Below are positions 3,797-63,162 of a DNA stretch of 64,000 nt, in pieces. This DNA is from a bacterium. Its GTDB lineage: Bacteria; Patescibacteriota; CPR2; UBA1875; JAJYID01. The number at the start of each line of letters is the position of its first letter. The stretch's first letter is position 1. Below the pieces are notes generated by a model. It did not search any database. It saw only the letters and a list, made by a program, of their open reading frames with translations, and was not told the DNA's origin. The stretch covers positions 113,112 to 177,111 of the forward strand of contig JAUSJO010000002.1 of NCBI GenBank assembly GCA_030647205.1, written 5' to 3'. The position numbers and the translations under genes are program-made.

Positions 3797-3917
3797 CTAA
3801 TATACACATCAAATCGACAAAAATGTTGACATTTATAAATGTTTATGTCAAAATCATAATTATATTTAAAGATCACCTCTTTATTAGCAATTTGAAAAAA
3901 CTAGGAAGGGAGAACCG

Positions 3918-16587: not shown

Positions 16588-16625
16588 TAAAGGTATCCCG
16601 TCTCCATTATCCCTTACTCCTCTCT

Positions 16626-16977
16626 GTCATTCCCGCGGAGGCGGGAATCTAGACTATAAAATATGAATTCATACTATGTTTATATGATGGCTAGTGATAG
16701 AAATGGTACCCTTTATATTGGGGTAACATCAAATCTCATAGGAAGGGCATTTGAGCATAAAAATGGCGCGTATGGTGGTTTTACCGCAAAGTATAAAGTA
16801 GATAAGTTAGTTTACTTTGAGGAGACAACAAGTATAGAAGAAGCCATCACGAAAGAAAAACAGCTAAAGAAGTGGAATCGTCAATGGAAAATGAGGCTTA
16901 TTGAGGACTTTAATCCCAAGTGGGAGGATTTATCCTATAACATTGCTTGACTAGATCCCCGCCTCCGCGGGAATGAC
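16626..16977 (+). mobile_element. GIY-YIG mini-nuclease cassette bounded by 27-bp inverted hairpin repeats, inserted between recA and recX
   Basis: GTCATTCCCGCGGAGGCGGGAATCTAG at 16626-16653. Its reverse complement (1 mismatch) lies at 16951-16977. Confidence 0.5.
16663..16950 (+). CDS. GIY-YIG nuclease family protein (stand-alone URI domain)
   Basis: YYVYMMASDRNGTLYIGVTSNLIGRAFEHKNG GIY-YIG motif, 95 aa. Confidence 0.85.
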   Translation: MNSYYVYMMASDRNGTLYIGVTSNLIGRAFEHKNGAYGGFTAKYKVDKLVYFEETTSIEEAITKEKQLKKWNRQWKMRLIEDFNPKWEDLSYNIA

Positions 16978-16998
16978 AATTTTTAAGGTATCAATATT

Positions 16999-23760: not shown

Positions 23761-24516
23761 ATGAAGAAACGGATCGACATTTTATTAACAGAAAAGGGAT
23801 TAGCCGAGAGTCGGACGAAGGCCCAGGCTTTTTTAATGAGTGGCCAGGTTGAGGTCGATGGGAGAAAAATAGACAAAGCCGGAACACTTGTTGATGATGA
23901 CTCCGAGATCAAGATCAAAGAAAGATTTCCATATGTTTCACGAGGAGCGCTAAAAATCCAAAAGGCTTATCAAGAATTTGGACTAGACTTTAAAGATATG
24001 GTGATTTGCGATATTGGTTCTTCAACAGGAGGATTCACTGATTTTGCACTTCAAAATGGGGCGAAGAAAGTTTTCGCCATCGATGTTGGCTACGGTCAGC
24101 TTGATCAAAAGCTTCGTGAAGATTCTCGGGTAGTTGTGATGGAAAAAACGAATTTTCGAGACATTGATGAGTTACCCGAGAAAATTGACCTCTTTGTCTG
24201 TGACGTATCTTTTATTTCACTTAAAAAAATTATCCTAAAAATTAAAGAGATTGTAGATTATAAAACACAGTGTGTTTTGCTTATAAAGCCTCAGTTTGAG
24301 GTGGGCAAAGAGGTCGCCGATAAATGCAAAGGTGTCATAAAAGACGAGGAAGTTCAGCGAGGAGTTGTAGAGGAGATTGCCAGATTCGCTGAAGACAATG
24401 GATTTCAGGTAAAGGGACTGACGGAGTCACCGATTACCGGTGCAAAGGGGAATAAAGAGTTTCTGATTTGGCTAACCCTCTCTTGTCATTCTGAACTTGA
24501 TTCAGAATCCAGATAA
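23761..24516 (+). CDS. tlyA: TlyA family rRNA 2'-O-methyltransferase
   Basis: S4 domain followed by an FtsJ-like methyltransferase (DIGSSTGGFTD). The last 9 codons are encoded by a hairpin repeat. Confidence 0.85.
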   Translation: MKKRIDILLTEKGLAESRTKAQAFLMSGQVEVDGRKIDKAGTLVDDDSEIKIKERFPYVSRGALKIQKAYQEFGLDFKDMVICDIGSSTGGFTDFALQNGAKKVFAIDVGYGQLDQKLREDSRVVVMEKTNFRDIDELPEKIDLFVCDVSFISLKKIILKIKEIVDYKTQCVLLIKPQFEVGKEVADKCKGVIKDEEVQRGVVEEIARFAEDNGFQVKGLTESPITGAKGNKEFLIWLTLSCHSELDSESR

Positions 24517-24836
24517 ATAAATTCCATGAATTCATATTATGTTTACATCACTGCGAGCCAAAGAAATGGAACGCTATATACCGGCGTAACCAATAACTTA
24601 ATGAAAAGAATCTATGAGCATAAAAACGCCAAGCCCGAAACCTTTACAGGTAAATACCTTACTAACAGATTGGTTTATTTTGAGGAAACAGCCAGTATTG
24701 AAGAAGCAATCAAAAGAGAAAAACAGATAAAAAACTGGAAGCGTAAATGGAAATTAGATTTGATTGAGGAAAATAATCCAGAATGGGAAGATCTTTATGA
24801 TAAGTTCCTGGATTCTGAATCAAGTTCAGAATGACA
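24486..24836 (+). mobile_element. second GIY-YIG cassette bounded by inverted hairpin repeats
   Basis: GTCATTCTGAACTTGATTCAGAATCC at 24486-24512 and its exact reverse complement at 24810-24836. A decayed extra copy lies at 24903-24921. Confidence 0.5.
24526..24834 (+). CDS. GIY-YIG nuclease family protein (paralogue, ~60% identical to 16663-16950)
   Basis: YYVYITASQRNGTLYTGVTNNLMKRIYEHKN motif. C-terminal DSESSSE encoded by the hairpin. Confidence 0.85.
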   Translation: MNSYYVYITASQRNGTLYTGVTNNLMKRIYEHKNAKPETFTGKYLTNRLVYFEETASIEEAIKREKQIKNWKRKWKLDLIEENNPEWEDLYDKFLDSESSSE

Positions 24837-24921
24837 AAACTAGTGAGAAAATGATTTTCTTTAGTGCTATCTCTGAACTGATCGAGGGAGATCTTATTTT
24901 ATGAGTTCAGAATGACAAGGG

Positions 24922-26010
24922 TTAAACATTAAACTTAAAAATCATCACATCGCCGTTTTGGACGGTGTAATCTTTGCCTTCCAGCCGAACCTTTCCTGCT
25001 GACTTTGCGCCGGTCCAGCCATTGCCAGTAACCAAATCTTTCCACGAAACGGTTTCGGCTTTGATAAACCCCTTTTCGAAATCCGTATGTATGACGCCGG
25101 CAGCTTGGGGCGCTTTGTCTCCGATGTGGATAGTCCATGCCTTGATCTCTTTTTCTCCGGCAGTGAAATAAGTTTGAAGGCCTAAAAGTTCAAAACCTTT
25201 CTTGATCAGCTGATTGAGCCCGGTTTCTGTCTGTCCGAGTTCTGCCAAATATTCCTTCTTCTCTTCATTTGACAGCTCATTTAGCTCTGACTCTATTTTC
25301 GCTGATATAAGAACATAGTCTGAAGACTTAATGTTGTAACTCTCGATAGTTTTTTCCAGCTCTGATTTATTAGACAGATGTTCTTCATCAATATTAAAAA
25401 TATAAATGTGTGGTTTTAGTGTAAGTAAGCTTAGATCTTTAATTTGCTCCGTTTCCTTTTCAGTTAGTCCCAGCTCTCTTGCCGCTTTTCCTTCTTCCAT
25501 TTCTTTCTGAATTTTTTGGACTAAGTCCAGGTCTGCTTTCAACTTAGGATTGCCCTTTGCGTCTTTTGTAAGTTTAGCTACCCTTTTTCCTACCGTTTCC
25601 AGGTCTGCAAGTATGAGTTCCATTTTGATGATGTCTATATCGGAAACAGGATTTAAGTCGCCGGAAACGTGAGTAACATTTTTATCAGTAAAAACCCGTA
25701 CTACTTCAGCTATAGCATCGCACTCGCGGATATTGGCCAAGAATTTATTGCCTAGTCCTTCCCCGCAGCTAGCGCCTTTCACTATCCCCGCGATGTCAAT
25801 AAACTCTACAATTGCCGGGACTATTTTTTGTGTTGGGATGACCTCAGCTAGCTTTTGTAAACGTTCATCAGGAACCTCCACGACACCGACATTTGGGTCG
25901 ATAGTGCAAAAAGGGTAATTCGAAGCTTCTGCCTTGTTTCTTGTTAAAGCATTAAAAAGCGTACTTTTGCCGACATTCGGCAGTCCAACTATTCCGATGG
26001 ATAATCCCAT
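24922..26010 (-). CDS. ychF: ribosome-binding ATPase YchF (Obg-like)
   Basis: [19 protein letters not shown]1 motif, TGS C-terminal domain. Confidence 0.9.
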
Positions 26011-50346: not shown

Positions 50347-51306
50347 CTAACTTTTTTTGTGGAAGTTTTTATGTATTTCGCGTAGGCGGGTGTCCGTTAC
50401 ATGGGTGTAGATCTGGGTTGTCGTTATTGATGAGTGTCCGAGCATTGCCTGAACACTTCGGATGTCAGCACCATTAATGAGTAAATCTGTGGCGAAGGAG
50501 TGGCGGAGCATGTGCGGCGTCACTTTTTTTGTTATCCCAACCAGTTTTGCATATTTTGAGACCAGGCGTTGGATGCTTCTCGGTGTGAGGCGCATGTACT
50601 CGCCGTCATCAAGCCCGTCTTTTATCCCTGAAAAATGTATAAATAGTGGTTTGGCATTATCGTCTCTTTTTGAAAGGTAGGTTTTGATCTTTTTTGAAGC
50701 ACTATCTGATAGGAAAACTACACGGTCTTTTCCACCTTTCCCTCTGACATTGAACTCGCCCCTTTCCAGGTTGATTTGATCGCGATTTAGACCCGTGAGC
50801 TCGCTTATTCTTAAGCCCGTAGAAAAAAGAGTTTCAAGAATTGCGCTGTCACGCAAAGTAATGGTTTCTTTCTTGGATGGATGTTTTTCGGGCGCTTGCA
50901 GCAGATCGTCTACTTCGGATATCTCCAAGAATTCGATCTTCTTTCTTTCCATATTGCCGAGCTCGACTTTTTCAGCAGATAAGGACTTAATGTCGCGTTT
51001 GGCGAGGTATTTTAAGAATGCCCGGAGAGCTATAATGTGGTAGTTCTGGGTGATTTTCGCCAGATTTCCCCCGAGTTCTGTATTCAACCGGTTCAGATAA
51101 AGGCGGTATTTGCGGACTAGTTCGGCATTGATCTGCTCAGGTCGTATCTCACGGCTTCGGCCATCTTCGGCAAACTCCAAAAAACGTCTGAGATAGTGGT
51201 CATAGTTTCTGATTGTTAGCTCAGAATGGTTTTTCTCTATTTCACAGTATTCAAGAAAGTCGTTTACAAGATCATTAACGCTAGCCATGTCTATATTGTA
51301 CGACAC
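50347..51306 (-). CDS. xerC: tyrosine recombinase XerC/XerD family
   Basis: LRHSFAT...GHSSITTTQIYTHV catalytic region. N-terminal SAM-like domain. Confidence 0.85.
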   Translation of the reverse strand: MSYNIDMASVNDLVNDFLEYCEIEKNHSELTIRNYDHYLRRFLEFAEDGRSREIRPEQINAELVRKYRLYLNRLNTELGGNLAKITQNYHIIALRAFLKYLAKRDIKSLSAEKVELGNMERKKIEFLEISEVDDLLQAPEKHPSKKETITLRDSAILETLFSTGLRISELTGLNRDQINLERGEFNVRGKGGKDRVVFLSDSASKKIKTYLSKRDDNAKPLFIHFSGIKDGLDDGEYMRLTPRSIQRLVSKYAKLVGITKKVTPHMLRHSFATDLLINGADIRSVQAMLGHSSITTTQIYTHVTDTRLREIHKNFHKKS

Positions 51307-51318
51307 TTTTCTTCCCTT

Positions 51319-51384
51319 GTCATTCCGAGCGTAGCGGAGGAATCCCTTCCCCCGTATGTCATTCCCGCAGAGACGGGAATCTAG
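51319..51384 (+). repeat. two tandem GTCATTC-type hairpins
   Basis: GTCATTCCGAGCGTAGCGGAGGAATCCC and GTCATTCCCGCAGAGACGGGAATCTAG, directly upstream of repeat copy 3. Confidence 0.55.
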
Positions 51385-51395
51385 TCTTTCTTTAA

Positions 51396-51600
51396 ATAGT
51401 ATCCACTTTTTTAGAAAAAGTGGAGTAAAAATTGCGGCTTAGACGGTCTCTCAAAGTATCGTCTGGTTTGCTCTCTCATCTTTAAAAAAATTAACTCGCT
51501 TCTCTCAAACAAAATTCTTTTTAAAGGTTCGTTTACTCCCAGACTTTCTTTTCGAGCCGATAGCCGCAAGCGAGCTCCCTTTGAAAAAATCATGCCGGAT
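51396..51600 (+). repeat. ~200-bp intergenic repeat element, copy 3 (subtype B middle)
   Basis: Same CCACTTTTTTAGAAAAAGTGG start and CCCTTTGAAAAAATCATGCCGGAT end. Middle matches copy 5. Confidence 0.85.
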
Positions 51601-51684
51601 TTCATTGCTAGCTTTTGCAATATTGGTTATAGCTATAATTCCAACAACTTGAACATTTTGGACGATTCCCTCATACTTGTTTAT

Positions 51685-53130
51685 ATGAAAGCGGTTTTTT
51701 GTGGTGTTATTTTGTCCTCATTTGTCCTGGGCGTTTTTTTTGCTCCGTACTTTAGCGTTTCGACGGCAGCGCTCGTTGCACTTTTTGCCATTTTTTTTCT
51801 CTTGAGCCTTTCCCTTATTCCTGAGAAGTGGCTTTGGCTGAGCATGATTGCCATCGGTTTTTTCTTTCTGGGTGTTTTTCGCTTGCAGCAGTATCAAACC
51901 GGTCTTGAAAAAGTTACTTATCCGACAGATAAAGATGTGAATGTTCAGGGGCAGGTTGTGGAGCCGCCGGAGGATACTAAAAAAGCAACAAAGGTTGTGA
52001 TCCAGGATCAAGATAAAAAGGCAAAAATTCTGCTTATTTTGAGGCCGTTTTCAGGGATAAAGTATGGCGATTATCTGGCAGTTGAAGGGAAAATGGTCCG
52101 GCCGGAAAGCGAAAGTCTCAAAAACAACCTTCTTACAAAAGGGATTTCATACCAAATGCTTTTTCCGAACATAGAAAAGATTAAGACAGCCGGAAACCTG
52201 AGTTTGCAAATGCAGGCTAAAAACTTGCTGTATGGTGTGAGAAATCGTTTTGAAAGCAGTATAAACAGTATTTTGCCCGAACCGGAAAGCTCGTTTTTAG
52301 CGGGGCTTCTTCTTGGGATCAAAAGAAACTTGCCCGACTGGCTGATGGAAGATTTGCAAAAAAGTGGGACAACTCACATCATCGCTCTTTCCGGATTTAA
52401 TATTACTGTGATTGTGATGGGACTGCGTCTGATGTTTTCTAAAAAGTCGGCGAAAATGAGTTTCTATTTGCCACTCATAGCCATTGCCGGATTCGTGGTA
52501 ATGACCGGTGCGCAAAGTTCGGTGGTGAGAGCCGGCATCATGGGTGCGATGATGATGCTAGCGTACCGTGTCGGGCGCCAGTCGTCAGCTACGATGGCGA
52601 TAGTTATAACGGCAGCGGCAATGATATTTTATAACCCGATGATACTTAGATTTGATGTTGGTTTCCAGCTTTCATTTGCGGCATTTTTGGGAATTATCTA
52701 CCTGGGACCGATAATCCGAGAGATTTTACCCGGCAAAAGAGAGTCGTTGAAGGAGGTTCTCGCCATGACGCTTGGGGCGCAGGTAATGGCGTATCCGATA
52801 ATTCTCTACTACTTCGGCAACTTTTCGCTTATCGCACTCGCAACTAATTTAATAATTCTGCCATTTATTCCCTTTGTGATGCTCATCGGATTTATAAGCA
52901 CAGTTCTGGGCATGATATGGTCGTATCTGGGATATGTGCTATCGTGGACGGTGTTTTTTGCCCTGAGGGTAATCATCGGCGCAATCCACTTCTCTGCTTC
53001 CCTGCCTTTTGCATCTCTTGATGGTATAAACATCTCGCCGACCAATATGGCCATTTGTTACATCATAGTTCTAGAGCTGATATTTATTTATAAAGCTATA
53101 AAGAGAAAGCGCCTTTCAAATGGAAGATAA
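51685..53130 (+). CDS. comEC: ComEC/Rec2 competence membrane channel (DUF4131 + competence domain; no fused MBL domain)
   Basis: Polytopic. HIIALSGFNITVIV and SSVVRAGIMGAMMM are competence-domain signatures. Start chosen at MKAVFCGV. Confidence 0.8.
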   Translation: MKAVFCGVILSSFVLGVFFAPYFSVSTAALVALFAIFFLLSLSLIPEKWLWLSMIAIGFFFLGVFRLQQYQTGLEKVTYPTDKDVNVQGQVVEPPEDTKKATKVVIQDQDKKAKILLILRPFSGIKYGDYLAVEGKMVRPESESLKNNLLTKGISYQMLFPNIEKIKTAGNLSLQMQAKNLLYGVRNRFESSINSILPEPESSFLAGLLLGIKRNLPDWLMEDLQKSGTTHIIALSGFNITVIVMGLRLMFSKKSAKMSFYLPLIAIAGFVVMTGAQSSVVRAGIMGAMMMLAYRVGRQSSATMAIVITAAAMIFYNPMILRFDVGFQLSFAAFLGIIYLGPIIREILPGKRESLKEVLAMTLGAQVMAYPIILYYFGNFSLIALATNLIILPFIPFVMLIGFISTVLGMIWSYLGYVLSWTVFFALRVIIGAIHFSASLPFASLDGINISPTNMAICYIIVLELIFIYKAIKRKRLSNGR

Positions 53131-53998
53131 AACAAAGAAGATATTTTCGCCGATTGCGATTCTAATTTTGATAGTGGCATTTATTGGGATTTGGGCAAGT
53201 GTTTTTGCTGTTCCCGACAAGAAGCTAAAGGTCACATATCTTGATATCGGGCAGGGTGATAGCGAACTTATCGAGTTTCCGGATGGTAAAATGGCGCTTA
53301 TAGATGGCGGGCCGGGCAAAAAAGTTCTTGAGGGTTTGGGCAAAAATATGCCTTTCTACAAGCGAAAAATAGATATTATCTTTCTTTCTCATCCGCATGC
53401 TGACCATGTGGCGGGACTTGTTCATGTTTTGAGCCGATATGAAGTTGGACGAGTTGTGCTTACCCGGGCGGTTCATAATGCGCCGGAATATCAGGAATTT
53501 TTAAAGCAGGCTAAAGATAAAAATATTCCGGCGACTGAAGGTATCCGCGGAACGGAGTTTGACTTTTCCGGTGGCAGCAAAATTAAGATTTTATATCCGA
53601 CAGGTACGCTTGATAGTCAGAACCTAAACAATACCTCAGAAGTTTTGATGCTTGAGTCTGGCAAAACGAGATTTCTATTTATGGGAGATCTGGAAAATGA
53701 TGGATCTGATAAGCTGCTTGCTCTCGAGCCGGATTTGCAGACGGATGTCATAAAAGTGCCTCATCATGGCTCACAAAATGCTCTAAATGCAGATTTATAT
53801 AAGAAAGCTAGCCCAAAATATGCGGTTATTTCTGTTGGTAAAGATAACAAATACGGTCATCCTCACACTGAAGTACTGAATTTCCTGGAAGCTAGCGGGA
53901 TAAAATATTTCCGCACTGATACTGCCGGAGATGTAAGCCTTGTTTCGGACGGGACAAGTGTAGAGCTTAAAAAAGGAAATAATCTTTTGTCGTTTTAA
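53120..53998 (+). CDS. ComEC-type metallo-beta-lactamase domain protein (separate ORF)
   Basis: N-terminal TM. LSHPHADHVAGL and HHGS motifs. Overlaps the comEC stop by 11 nt. Confidence 0.75.
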   Translation: MEDKTKKIFSPIAILILIVAFIGIWASVFAVPDKKLKVTYLDIGQGDSELIEFPDGKMALIDGGPGKKVLEGLGKNMPFYKRKIDIIFLSHPHADHVAGLVHVLSRYEVGRVVLTRAVHNAPEYQEFLKQAKDKNIPATEGIRGTEFDFSGGSKIKILYPTGTLDSQNLNNTSEVLMLESGKTRFLFMGDLENDGSDKLLALEPDLQTDVIKVPHHGSQNALNADLYKKASPKYAVISVGKDNKYGHPHTEVLNFLEASGIKYFRTDTAGDVSLVSDGTSVELKKGNNLLSF

Positions 53999-54020: not shown

Positions 54021-54044
54021 GTCATTCTGGCTTGTCCAGAAGCA
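54021..54044 (+). repeat. GTCATTC-type hairpin
   Basis: GTCATTCTGGCTTGTCCAGAAGCA, upstream of repeat copy 4. Confidence 0.45.
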
Positions 54045-54052
54045 TCTCTTTA

Positions 54053-61354: not shown

Positions 61355-61377
61355 TGTATAATTCTGACCTCTCTCTG

Positions 61378-61430
61378 TCATTCTGACGAAGGAAGAATCT
61401 AGATCCTTCGTGCCTCAGGATGACGAAGTA
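61378..61430 (+). repeat. GTCATTC-type hairpin repeat after ruvB
   Basis: GTCATTCTGACGAAGGAAGAATCTAG plus the complementary TCCTTCGTGCCTCAGGATGACGAAG. Confidence 0.5.
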
Positions 61431-62729: not shown

Positions 62730-63141
62730 CTTAGGTCAGAAGTTAGGTGAGCAGCTTAAGGGAGGTGAGGTGGTTGCTCTTTATGGTGATCTCGGCGGAG
62801 GAAAAACGCAGTTCACAAAAGGAATTGCCAAGGGACTAGGAATAGAAGATGATATTTTCTCTCCTACGTTTGTGATTCGCAGAGATTGTAAGGGCAAAGA
62901 GTTGAGCTTGCTTCACTATGATTTTTATAGGTTTGAAGTACCGGATGAAGAACTGATTGAAAGTTTAGAAGAAGGGATAAATCCTGAAAATGTGACGGTT
63001 ATAGAGTGGGCGGAAAGAGTTGAAAAATATTTGCCAGAAAACACGATTAAAGTTGTATTCCGTTACATCTCAGAAAGTGAAAGAGAAATAGAGATTGAAG
63101 GTAATGGTTTTAGTGCTGTCATTCCGACCGACCCTACTTAA
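62692..63141 (+). CDS. tsaE: tRNA t6A biosynthesis ATPase TsaE
   Basis: VALYGDLGGGKTQFTKGIAKGLGI P-loop. C-terminal codons VIPTDPT lie within a GTCATTC hairpin. Confidence 0.85.
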   Translation: MKIVSKSSDETVSLGQKLGEQLKGGEVVALYGDLGGGKTQFTKGIAKGLGIEDDIFSPTFVIRRDCKGKELSLLHYDFYRFEVPDEELIESLEEGINPENVTVIEWAERVEKYLPENTIKVVFRYISESEREIEIEGNGFSAVIPTDPT

Positions 63142-63162
63142 GTAGCGAGTAGAGGAATCCCT
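63118..63162 (+). repeat. GTCATTCCGA-type hairpin overlapping the tsaE 3' end
   Basis: GTCATTCCGACCGACCCTACTTAAGTAGCGAGTAGAGGAATCCC, related to the hairpin at 51319. Confidence 0.5.

Follow-up and report, generated by a model that had tools for sequence, protein, structure and literature searches.

A probable SRM-ssn-SRM cassette, with a GIY-YIG nuclease gene between inverted CGTC/TGTC-tagged hairpins, at the tlyA/ychF junction of a Patescibacteriota genome

Short hairpin repeats with a CGTC or TGTC tag have been classed as CGTC-tagged repetitive extragenic palindromes (REPs), which consist of an unpaired tag, an 8-9-bp stem starting with AT, a loop of 4 or 5 nt and a CCA tail; dRS3 of Neisseria and RPE-4 and RPE-6 of Rickettsia belong to this class, for which no dedicated transposase was known (Di Nocera et al., BMC Genomics 2013, PMC3733652). 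The same hairpins, under the names NTS and SRM, were later found to flank the genes of the Ssn family of single-domain GIY-YIG nucleases of about 94 aa (Chenal et al., Nat Commun 2025, PMC11893778). According to that study, in which four Ssn homologues were characterised, the enzyme binds the hairpin solely as single-stranded DNA (ssDNA), on the tagged strand only, and cuts upstream of it, at a distance of a few nucleotides; binding depends critically on the C that follows the stem and cleavage on the three bases that precede it, RNA is not bound, and the catalytic residues of Neisseria SsnA are Y6, Y17 and E64. In Neisseria, the system reduces transformation by hairpin-bearing DNA (PMC11893778). 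Here we describe a feature at positions 24483-24837 of a 64-kb window (the whole stretch that was analysed, 64,000 nt of contig JAUSJO010000002.1, assembly GCA_030647205.1, Patescibacteriota), which is very probably an SRM-ssn-SRM cassette: an Ssn-family nuclease gene between two inverted CGTC/TGTC-tagged hairpin repeats. The initial annotation had treated the element as undescribed, and this did not hold, as both the Ssn/SRM system (PMC11893778) and the CGTC-tagged REPs (PMC3733652) had already been published.

The cassette, referred to below as cassette 2, lies between tlyA, the gene of a TlyA-family rRNA 2'-O-methyltransferase (23761-24516, plus strand; Pfam FtsJ, 9.3e-43, plus S4), and the convergent ychF, which encodes a ribosome-binding ATPase/GTPase (24922-26010, minus strand; Pfam YchF-GTPase_C, 2.4e-36) and forms the right border of the insertion. 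Synteny of tlyA and ychF was also seen in the fetched loci L001-L005, L089 and L090. Inverted-repeat and hairpin searches together with folding revealed the left hairpin (24483-24512, plus strand), an SRM or TGTC-tagged REP of the 5-nt-loop class with the GTC tag at 24485-24487, the stem at 24488-24495 / 24501-24508, the loop CTTGA and the tail CCAG at 24509-24512. It is followed by ssn2 (24526-24834, plus strand), which codes for a single-domain GIY-YIG nuclease of 102 aa (Pfam PF01541, E=8.8e-16), and by the right hairpin (24808-24837, minus strand; tag GTC at 24835-24833), identical to the left one but inverted. The inverted repeats that the initial annotation had placed around the second GIY-YIG open reading frame (ORF) are thus real, with coordinates one base off: 24483-24512 and 24808-24837 are 100% complementary over 30 nt, and GTCATTCTGAACTTGATTCAGAATCC at 24485-24510 has its exact reverse complement at 24810-24835. 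A perfect 30-nt repeat cannot have arisen by chance in 64 kb. Both arms read, in order, GTC, ATTCTGAA, CTTGA, TTCAGAAT and CCAG, and, when single-stranded, form an 8-bp stem closed by a 5-nt loop; the outer inverted repeat runs on into the 5' flank (TAACCCT(CTC)TTGTCATTCTGAACT). The further decayed copy noticed earlier is also present, as a third hairpin on the minus strand (24872-24916, with the whole copy spanning 24872-24919; stem TCTGAACT/AGTTCAGA, 24-nt loop), which adjoins the ychF stop codon and keeps the tag and the 5' arm unchanged, but has a G in place of the C after the stem.

The product of ssn2 appears to fit the Ssn family, as does that of ssn1, a GIY-YIG paralogue of 95 aa encoded in the recA/recX gap (16663-16950, plus strand), to judge by the domain, the residue spacing and the flanking hairpins. 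PF01541 covers residues 4-77 in both proteins, with no other domain above threshold, and Y7, Y18 and E65, invariant in a 17-sequence alignment, have the same spacing of 11 and 47 residues as Y6, Y17 and E64 of SsnA. Ssn2 and Ssn1 share 65.6% identity over 90 aa, which bears out the relationship first estimated at about 60%. Homologues of Ssn2 are numerous (1505 word-indexed; 4039 clusters at 50% identity with E<=1e-10). The AF2 model shows one compact GIY-YIG fold (pLDDT 87), with low confidence at the last two residues. The nearest solved structures in sequence and fold searches of the PDB were UPF0213 BH0048 (UPF0213 at E=1e-5), Slx1 and UvrC, and no solved Ssn structure was found by these searches. 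PADLOC and PHROGs gave no match for the nuclease, and the only NCBIfam match, to the group I intron endonuclease family TIGR01453, was below threshold (E=0.006; 16 bits vs. a 56-bit cut-off); the identity of a defence-system component or a phage homing endonuclease was therefore rejected.

The ssn1 gene belongs to a cassette of its own (cassette 1), with a left hairpin of the 4-nt-loop class (GTCATTCCCGCGGAGGCGGGAATCTAG; 16626-16652, plus strand) and a right hairpin that is its inverted copy with one stem mismatch (16951-16977, minus strand). The cassette 1 hairpin agrees with the NTS consensus CGTCATTCCCGCGMAVGCGGGAATCYRG at 26/28 positions. The window therefore shares with the published Ssn/NTS system (PMC11893778) a single-domain GIY-YIG protein of about 95-100 aa, the catalytic spacing, inverted hairpins of the form (C/T)GTC-ATTCC...-loop-...GGAAT-CYRG on both sides, a near-canonical NTS in cassette 1 and solo copies dispersed in the genome. 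It differs in the host, an uncultured bacterium of the Patescibacteria or candidate phyla radiation (CPR) type, a group unmentioned in the text of that paper; in the presence of two paralogues in one small region, each with its own hairpin class; in the A/T-rich stem and CTTGA loop of the cassette 2 hairpin, which escapes the degenerate pattern of the paper; and in the overlap of hairpins with coding ends, NTS being described in that paper as rare inside genes. The window hairpins also have the tag, stem length, AT start, loop and tail of the CGTC-tagged REPs (PMC3733652), with which they share frequent inverted dimers and occasional intragenic copies. No dedicated enzyme was found for those repeats and none of the five phyla listed for them is CPR, whereas here, as in PMC11893778, the repeats flank a nuclease gene.

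The association of the nuclease with tagged hairpins extends over the family. A scan of species-representative genomes yielded 80 loci, spread over many phyla and 55-72% identical, and 85 gene copies were counted in all. A plus-oriented tagged hairpin lies upstream of 70/85 copies, a minus-oriented one lies downstream of 72/85, and 60/85 have both. In addition, 66 distinct hairpins were picked by their unpaired parts alone (GTC, loop CYYGA, tail CYA); 60 of these have 8/8 stem pairs, and the share of paired cells in their alignment is 98.7%, vs. 77.6% after shuffling and at most 49% with the partner slid. Compensatory changes, affecting both sides of a pair, occur at 7/8 stem pairs. The arms are not kept as matched terminal inverted repeats (TIRs) in general: among the 48 cassettes with simple hairpins on both sides, stem and loop are identical in eight, and several cassettes mix the 4-nt-loop and 5-nt-loop classes. 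The earlier idea that each element keeps its own TIRs thus applies to the two window cassettes, which match internally (cassette 1 with one mismatch), and not generally to the family. In this lineage, the perfect repeat of cassette 2, like that in L090, points to arms that were homogenised recently.

Most copies of the hairpin stand alone. The exact 25-mer of cassette 2 was found at at least 130 sites in at least 120 metagenome stretches, and among the matches listed an ssn gene lies within 150 nt at 2/130 sites and is missing at 128/130. The initial annotation had asked for a link of such hairpins to GIY-YIG genes; seen from the gene the link is strong, as described above, while most exact copies have no ssn nearby. 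Of the 92 listed sites not close to a contig end, 74 are intergenic and 10 fall within long ORFs; the other 8 serve as ORF tails, and three of these tails read ...DSESSSE before the stop on unrelated proteins; an inverted partner is present within 300 nt at 26 of the 92. This pattern, with many solo repeats and one or few nuclease genes, matches that of REPs. Clusters of ssn paralogues were also observed, with three copies within 6 kb in L033 and two in tandem in L075, each copy having its own hairpins. Several 3'-half hairpin fragments (...CAGAATGAC repeated; 3810-3860) lie on the right of a cassette in L090, as if from repeated cutting and repair.

Judged against the nearest informative genome, the cassette has been inserted. 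On a contig from SRR22388063, where TlyA and RecX are 82% and 65% identical to those of the window, the convergent tlyA and ychF overlap (...TGGTTAGAGTTTAAACATTAA...), no sequence lies in between, and TlyA ends in ...EFLIWLEFKH (L089); that contig also has recA and recX separated by 3 nt, and the cassette 1 site is empty (L087). Cassette 2, from about CCCTCTCTT at 24477 to AAGGG at 24921, occupies exactly the former tlyA/ychF overlap. Occupied sites vary among relatives. An orthologue of cassette 1 in L086 has the same left hairpin and a different right hairpin, and its nuclease gene is broken by stop codons; L090 carries two units of the cassette 2 class, a frameshifted one at efp/tlyA and an intact one after tlyA; L211 has a cassette between efp and tlyA; and in a Margulisbacteria metagenome-assembled genome (MAG) a cassette is situated between leuS and a desulfoferrodoxin gene. 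The cassette thus probably behaves as a mobile, or a repeatedly inserted and horizontally moving, unit. No target-site duplication was seen at cassette 2 and none was consistent overall; an 8-bp direct repeat, AAGGTATC, flanks cassette 1 between the recA stop and the recX start (16590-16597 and 16985-16992), with a rough chance of about 0.01, and is absent from the L086 orthologue.

Other small genes occupy the same gaps in related loci. In three close relatives, a 150-aa minus-strand gene without a Pfam match fills the tlyA/ychF gap (L001, 827-1279; L004, 4718-5170; L005, 3920-4372); replacement of this gene by the cassette was set aside, as no homologue of it was found in the window. Genes for small PD-(D/E)XK nucleases (PF13366, PDDEXK_3, about 130 aa) were observed in L086 (671-1060) and L088 (487-885 and 2069-2467); they sit before recA, and in L088 one occupies the recA/recX gap. 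The recA/recX gap is a hot spot for different small nuclease genes, because it contains a GIY-YIG cassette in the window, a PDDEXK_3 gene in L088 and nothing in L087.

The insertion has changed protein ends. As had been noted from the sequence, the reading frames of tlyA, ssn2 and tsaE run into hairpins. The tlyA frame enters the left hairpin (...LSCHSELDSESR, stop at 24514-24516), which supplies about the last 11 codons (SCHSELDSESR) and the stop; the last 7-8 codons of ssn2 (...LDSESSSE) lie in the right hairpin, with the stop TGA within GAATGAC; and tsaE ends ...AVIPTDPT within a long-loop hairpin (63118-63162, plus strand), which gives its last codons (VIPTDPT), the Pfam TsaE domain stopping at residue 133/149. 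An alignment of 19 TlyA orthologues, proposed earlier as a check, shows that the protein usually ends 2-5 residues past EFLIWL and that hairpin-coded tails are limited to 3/19 orthologues: the window protein, P0123 (SCHSGLDPESRRK) and P0138 (PCHSELDSESI). All three genes have an ssn gene directly downstream. The tail of TlyA is specific to the lineage, goes with the cassette and is a by-product of insertion: cassette 2, placed at the overlap, displaced the original last codons of tlyA (EFKH), hence the new tail. The earlier view that the tails come from insertion is supported for TlyA, with its empty site in a relative, but a recent insertion cannot be read from the nuclease tail. The LDSESSSE tail is common to homologues only 66-81% identical, one of them from the Margulisbacteria MAG (another candidate phylum), and 29 nt of the right hairpin are 100% identical in four cassettes (window, L002 and both of L090) with diverged ORFs. 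The nuclease tail is therefore no recent accident; the end of the gene and the hairpin overlap in a conserved way.

Hairpin pairs were also observed in frame inside the TlyA coding sequence of P0132, P0134, P0137, P0138 and P0143 (columns ~160-260), with readings such as ...LSFPRRRESL...GNLDPRVKPEDD... (a WS5 bacterium) and ...SKRVILTCPGSKN...SGQARMT... (four others). The insertions lengthen the protein by 30-40 residues and are reminiscent of the palindromic elements that Rickettsia carries in frame within genes. The similarity to these elements lies in the entry of hairpin repeats into reading frames (here the TlyA, TsaE and Ssn2 tails, and in relatives the interior of TlyA), and the difference is that in the window only gene 3' ends are affected.

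For the source genome, the hairpin census covers the 64-kb window, in which the literal SRM and NTS patterns were replaced by a tag-plus-hairpin search with shuffles. The search found 12 GTCAT-tagged hairpins vs. 1.75 expected (maximum 5 in 100 shuffles), of which two (4962 and 25784) look like chance matches; the remaining ones are mostly directly 3' of genes (recA, tlyA, ychF, ruvB, tsaE and the ComEC ORF). After ruvB there is a back-to-back pair (61377-61424) with outward tags and abutting CTAG tails, i.e., the layout of a cassette without the gene. Two tandem hairpins (GTCATTCCGAGCGTAGCGGAGGAATCCC and GTCATTCCCGCAGAGACGGGAATCTAG; 51319-51384, plus strand) are located beside the start of a minus-strand integrase/recombinase gene, and a short one (GTCATTCTGGCTTGTCCAGAAGC; 54021-54045, plus strand) follows the ComEC metallo-beta-lactamase ORF. 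The window encodes the Competence and Lactamase_B domains of ComEC, which appears as two overlapping ORFs (51592-53130, Competence; 53120-53998, metallo-beta-lactamase); the gene may be truly divided, or the two ORFs may result from a frameshift or from an error in the assembly.

An intergenic module of about 220 nt was observed five times on the plus strand (9057, 23504, 51403, 54062 and 63181). A core of 30 nt, CCACTTTTTTAGAAAAAGTGGAGTAAAAAT, is the same in all five copies (0 expected by chance), and each copy has a GTCAT-type hairpin before it and a plus-strand gene downstream; one copy, along with the two tandem tagged hairpins, adjoins the tyrosine recombinase/integrase gene (50347-51306, minus strand). 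The module had no Rfam match and was not found in the 210 fetched loci, close relatives included. RNAalifold applied to four copies gave a 10-bp hairpin and a long-range stem GCGGCT...AGCCGC with 8 compensatory pairs. The module may represent a structured RNA or a leader, or else a miniature mobile element specific to this genome. The Rfam scan of the window revealed one tRNA and no other family.

The anatomy, the family-wide association and orientation, the strong covariation, the nucleotide conservation of the right arm and the insertion status are observed here; the activity of the cassette is predicted from the characterised Ssn enzymes. By homology, Ssn2 would bind the hairpin in ssDNA, on the tagged strand only, through the stem and the following C, and would cut a few nucleotides 5' of the GTC tag. 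As the arms are inverted, there would be one cleavable copy per strand, on the outer side of the cassette. On the plus strand the cut is predicted within the last tlyA codons, and on the minus strand just to the right of 24835 and possibly also of 24916; the third copy, which lacks the C required for binding according to the Neisseria mutational data, is probably inactive. Likely ssDNA substrates would be incoming DNA and replication or repair intermediates. Since the window encodes ComEC, incoming ssDNA is a plausible substrate, as in Neisseria. The tails of TlyA, Ssn2 and TsaE are very probably by-products of a hairpin inserted into, or retained over, the last codons, with TGA and TAA triplets of the hairpin supplying new stop codons.

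Several points weigh against the interpretation as an SRM-ssn-SRM cassette. The function of Ssn2 and of the 5-nt-loop class with an A/T-rich stem is predicted by homology, the role in natural transformation has been demonstrated in Neisseria alone, and the placement in the Ssn family relies on published family features rather than on direct comparison with SsnA or CDD cd10448. The published SRM pattern, HGTCWYN(0-2)YYVSBRHN(0-5)WNVSBRGN(0-2)RNCYNB, has 0 literal matches in the window, and the literal NTS pattern likewise has 0. Cassette 1 deviates from the SRM pattern by one loop base and cassette 2 by its A/T-rich stem; this pattern is a search aid derived from 29 genomes, too strict here, and not a definition of the family. 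Finally, the flanking hairpins of a cassette mostly differ, and so a rule of one enzyme for one stem is not established.

A further step would be to regard SRM-ssn-SRM as a present or recent self-propagating element, in which the breaks made by Ssn spread the cassette and the solo CGTC-tagged hairpins, possibly by a route in which the nuclease triggers repair-templated copying into hairpin dimers that lack the gene, for instance 61377-61424. This is tentative, and we consider it possible rather than probable. A stronger version, which extends the preferred interpretation, is an autonomous DNA transposon with the hairpins as TIRs and the GIY-YIG protein as transposase, by analogy with IS200/IS605 and with the systems of REPs or REPINs and their RAYT transposases. 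These systems share with the cassette a small nuclease gene between inverted copies of a genome-dispersed hairpin, the recognition of the hairpin as ssDNA (predicted by homology for Ssn2) and dimers that resemble a gene-less cassette. The authors of PMC11893778 raised the same hypothesis, and much of our evidence is in line with it: filled and empty sites at two loci, the same cassette class at three intergenic positions (efp/tlyA, tlyA/ychF and leuS/dfx) in different phyla, two copies in L090 and three in L033, pseudogenised copies, predicted cuts at the outer edge of each arm, and in cassette 2 a 30-nt perfect terminal inverted repeat with an outer repeat reaching into the 5' flank. However, the known systems carry the tag GTAG rather than CGTC and use enzymes of an unrelated fold (HUH) with a covalent tyrosine intermediate, and transposition of the cassette is hypothetical. 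GIY-YIG enzymes hydrolyse DNA without a covalent intermediate, and such hydrolysis cannot accomplish strand transfer alone. In addition, there is no consistent target-site duplication, the 8-bp repeat at cassette 1 being the sole candidate; the arms are non-identical in 40/48 cassettes; and there would be one cleavable site per strand, whereas in IS200/IS605 both ends are cut on one strand. The tlyA-adjacent cassette is common to lineages with TlyA 64-82% identical, and movement is therefore not frequent. On balance, an autonomous transposon seems rather unlikely.

REPs have also been proposed to act as terminators or mRNA 3'-end stabilisers. If the hairpins were host regulatory elements of this kind, the nuclease gene would be between them by accident, and the position of most window copies directly after gene 3' ends, like the predominance of solo intergenic copies elsewhere (74/92 among the matches listed), would be expected. 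Ordinary terminators were rejected, as the stem is not followed by a T-run and the terminator scan made no call, in agreement with what the initial annotation had supposed. The strict conservation and orientation of the unpaired tag and tail would be needless for a terminator, the cross-phylum association with ssn in a constant inverted orientation is too regular for coincidence, and Ssn enzymes lack RNA binding (PMC11893778); a regulatory role with an accidental nuclease gene is thus very unlikely. Even less likely, to the point of being hardly credible, is a free-standing GIY-YIG homing endonuclease directed at one double-stranded site, of the kind encoded by phage seg or I-TevI-type genes. 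The weak sub-threshold likeness to TIGR01453 would fit such an enzyme, and so would the occupation of conserved loci in some genomes and not in others, but the protein consists of the catalytic domain only, without a DNA-binding domain, has no PHROG match and no intron or intein context, and its cassette occurs at several unrelated sites.

The system as such is known; what our analysis adds to it is the CPR-type host, two enzyme/hairpin pairs side by side, the empty-site evidence and a documented effect on protein ends. For annotators, hairpin-written C-termini, and in relatives also peptides inside TlyA, should not be taken as genuine conserved sequence. The comparisons of filled and empty sites directly support an inserted, mobile-like unit, which had only been proposed by the discoverers of the system. 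If the cassette does propagate itself, Ssn would be the long-missing "dedicated enzyme" of the CGTC-tagged REPs, an analogue of RAYT on a different fold, and the filled and empty sites described here would be its natural footprints. The two pairs, one with a 4-nt loop and a GC-rich stem and the other with a 5-nt loop and an AT-rich stem, are candidate orthogonal ssDNA cutters. CPR/Patescibacteria are thought to depend on DNA uptake, and the Ssn/hairpin system is now placed in the reduced genome of a bacterium of this type.

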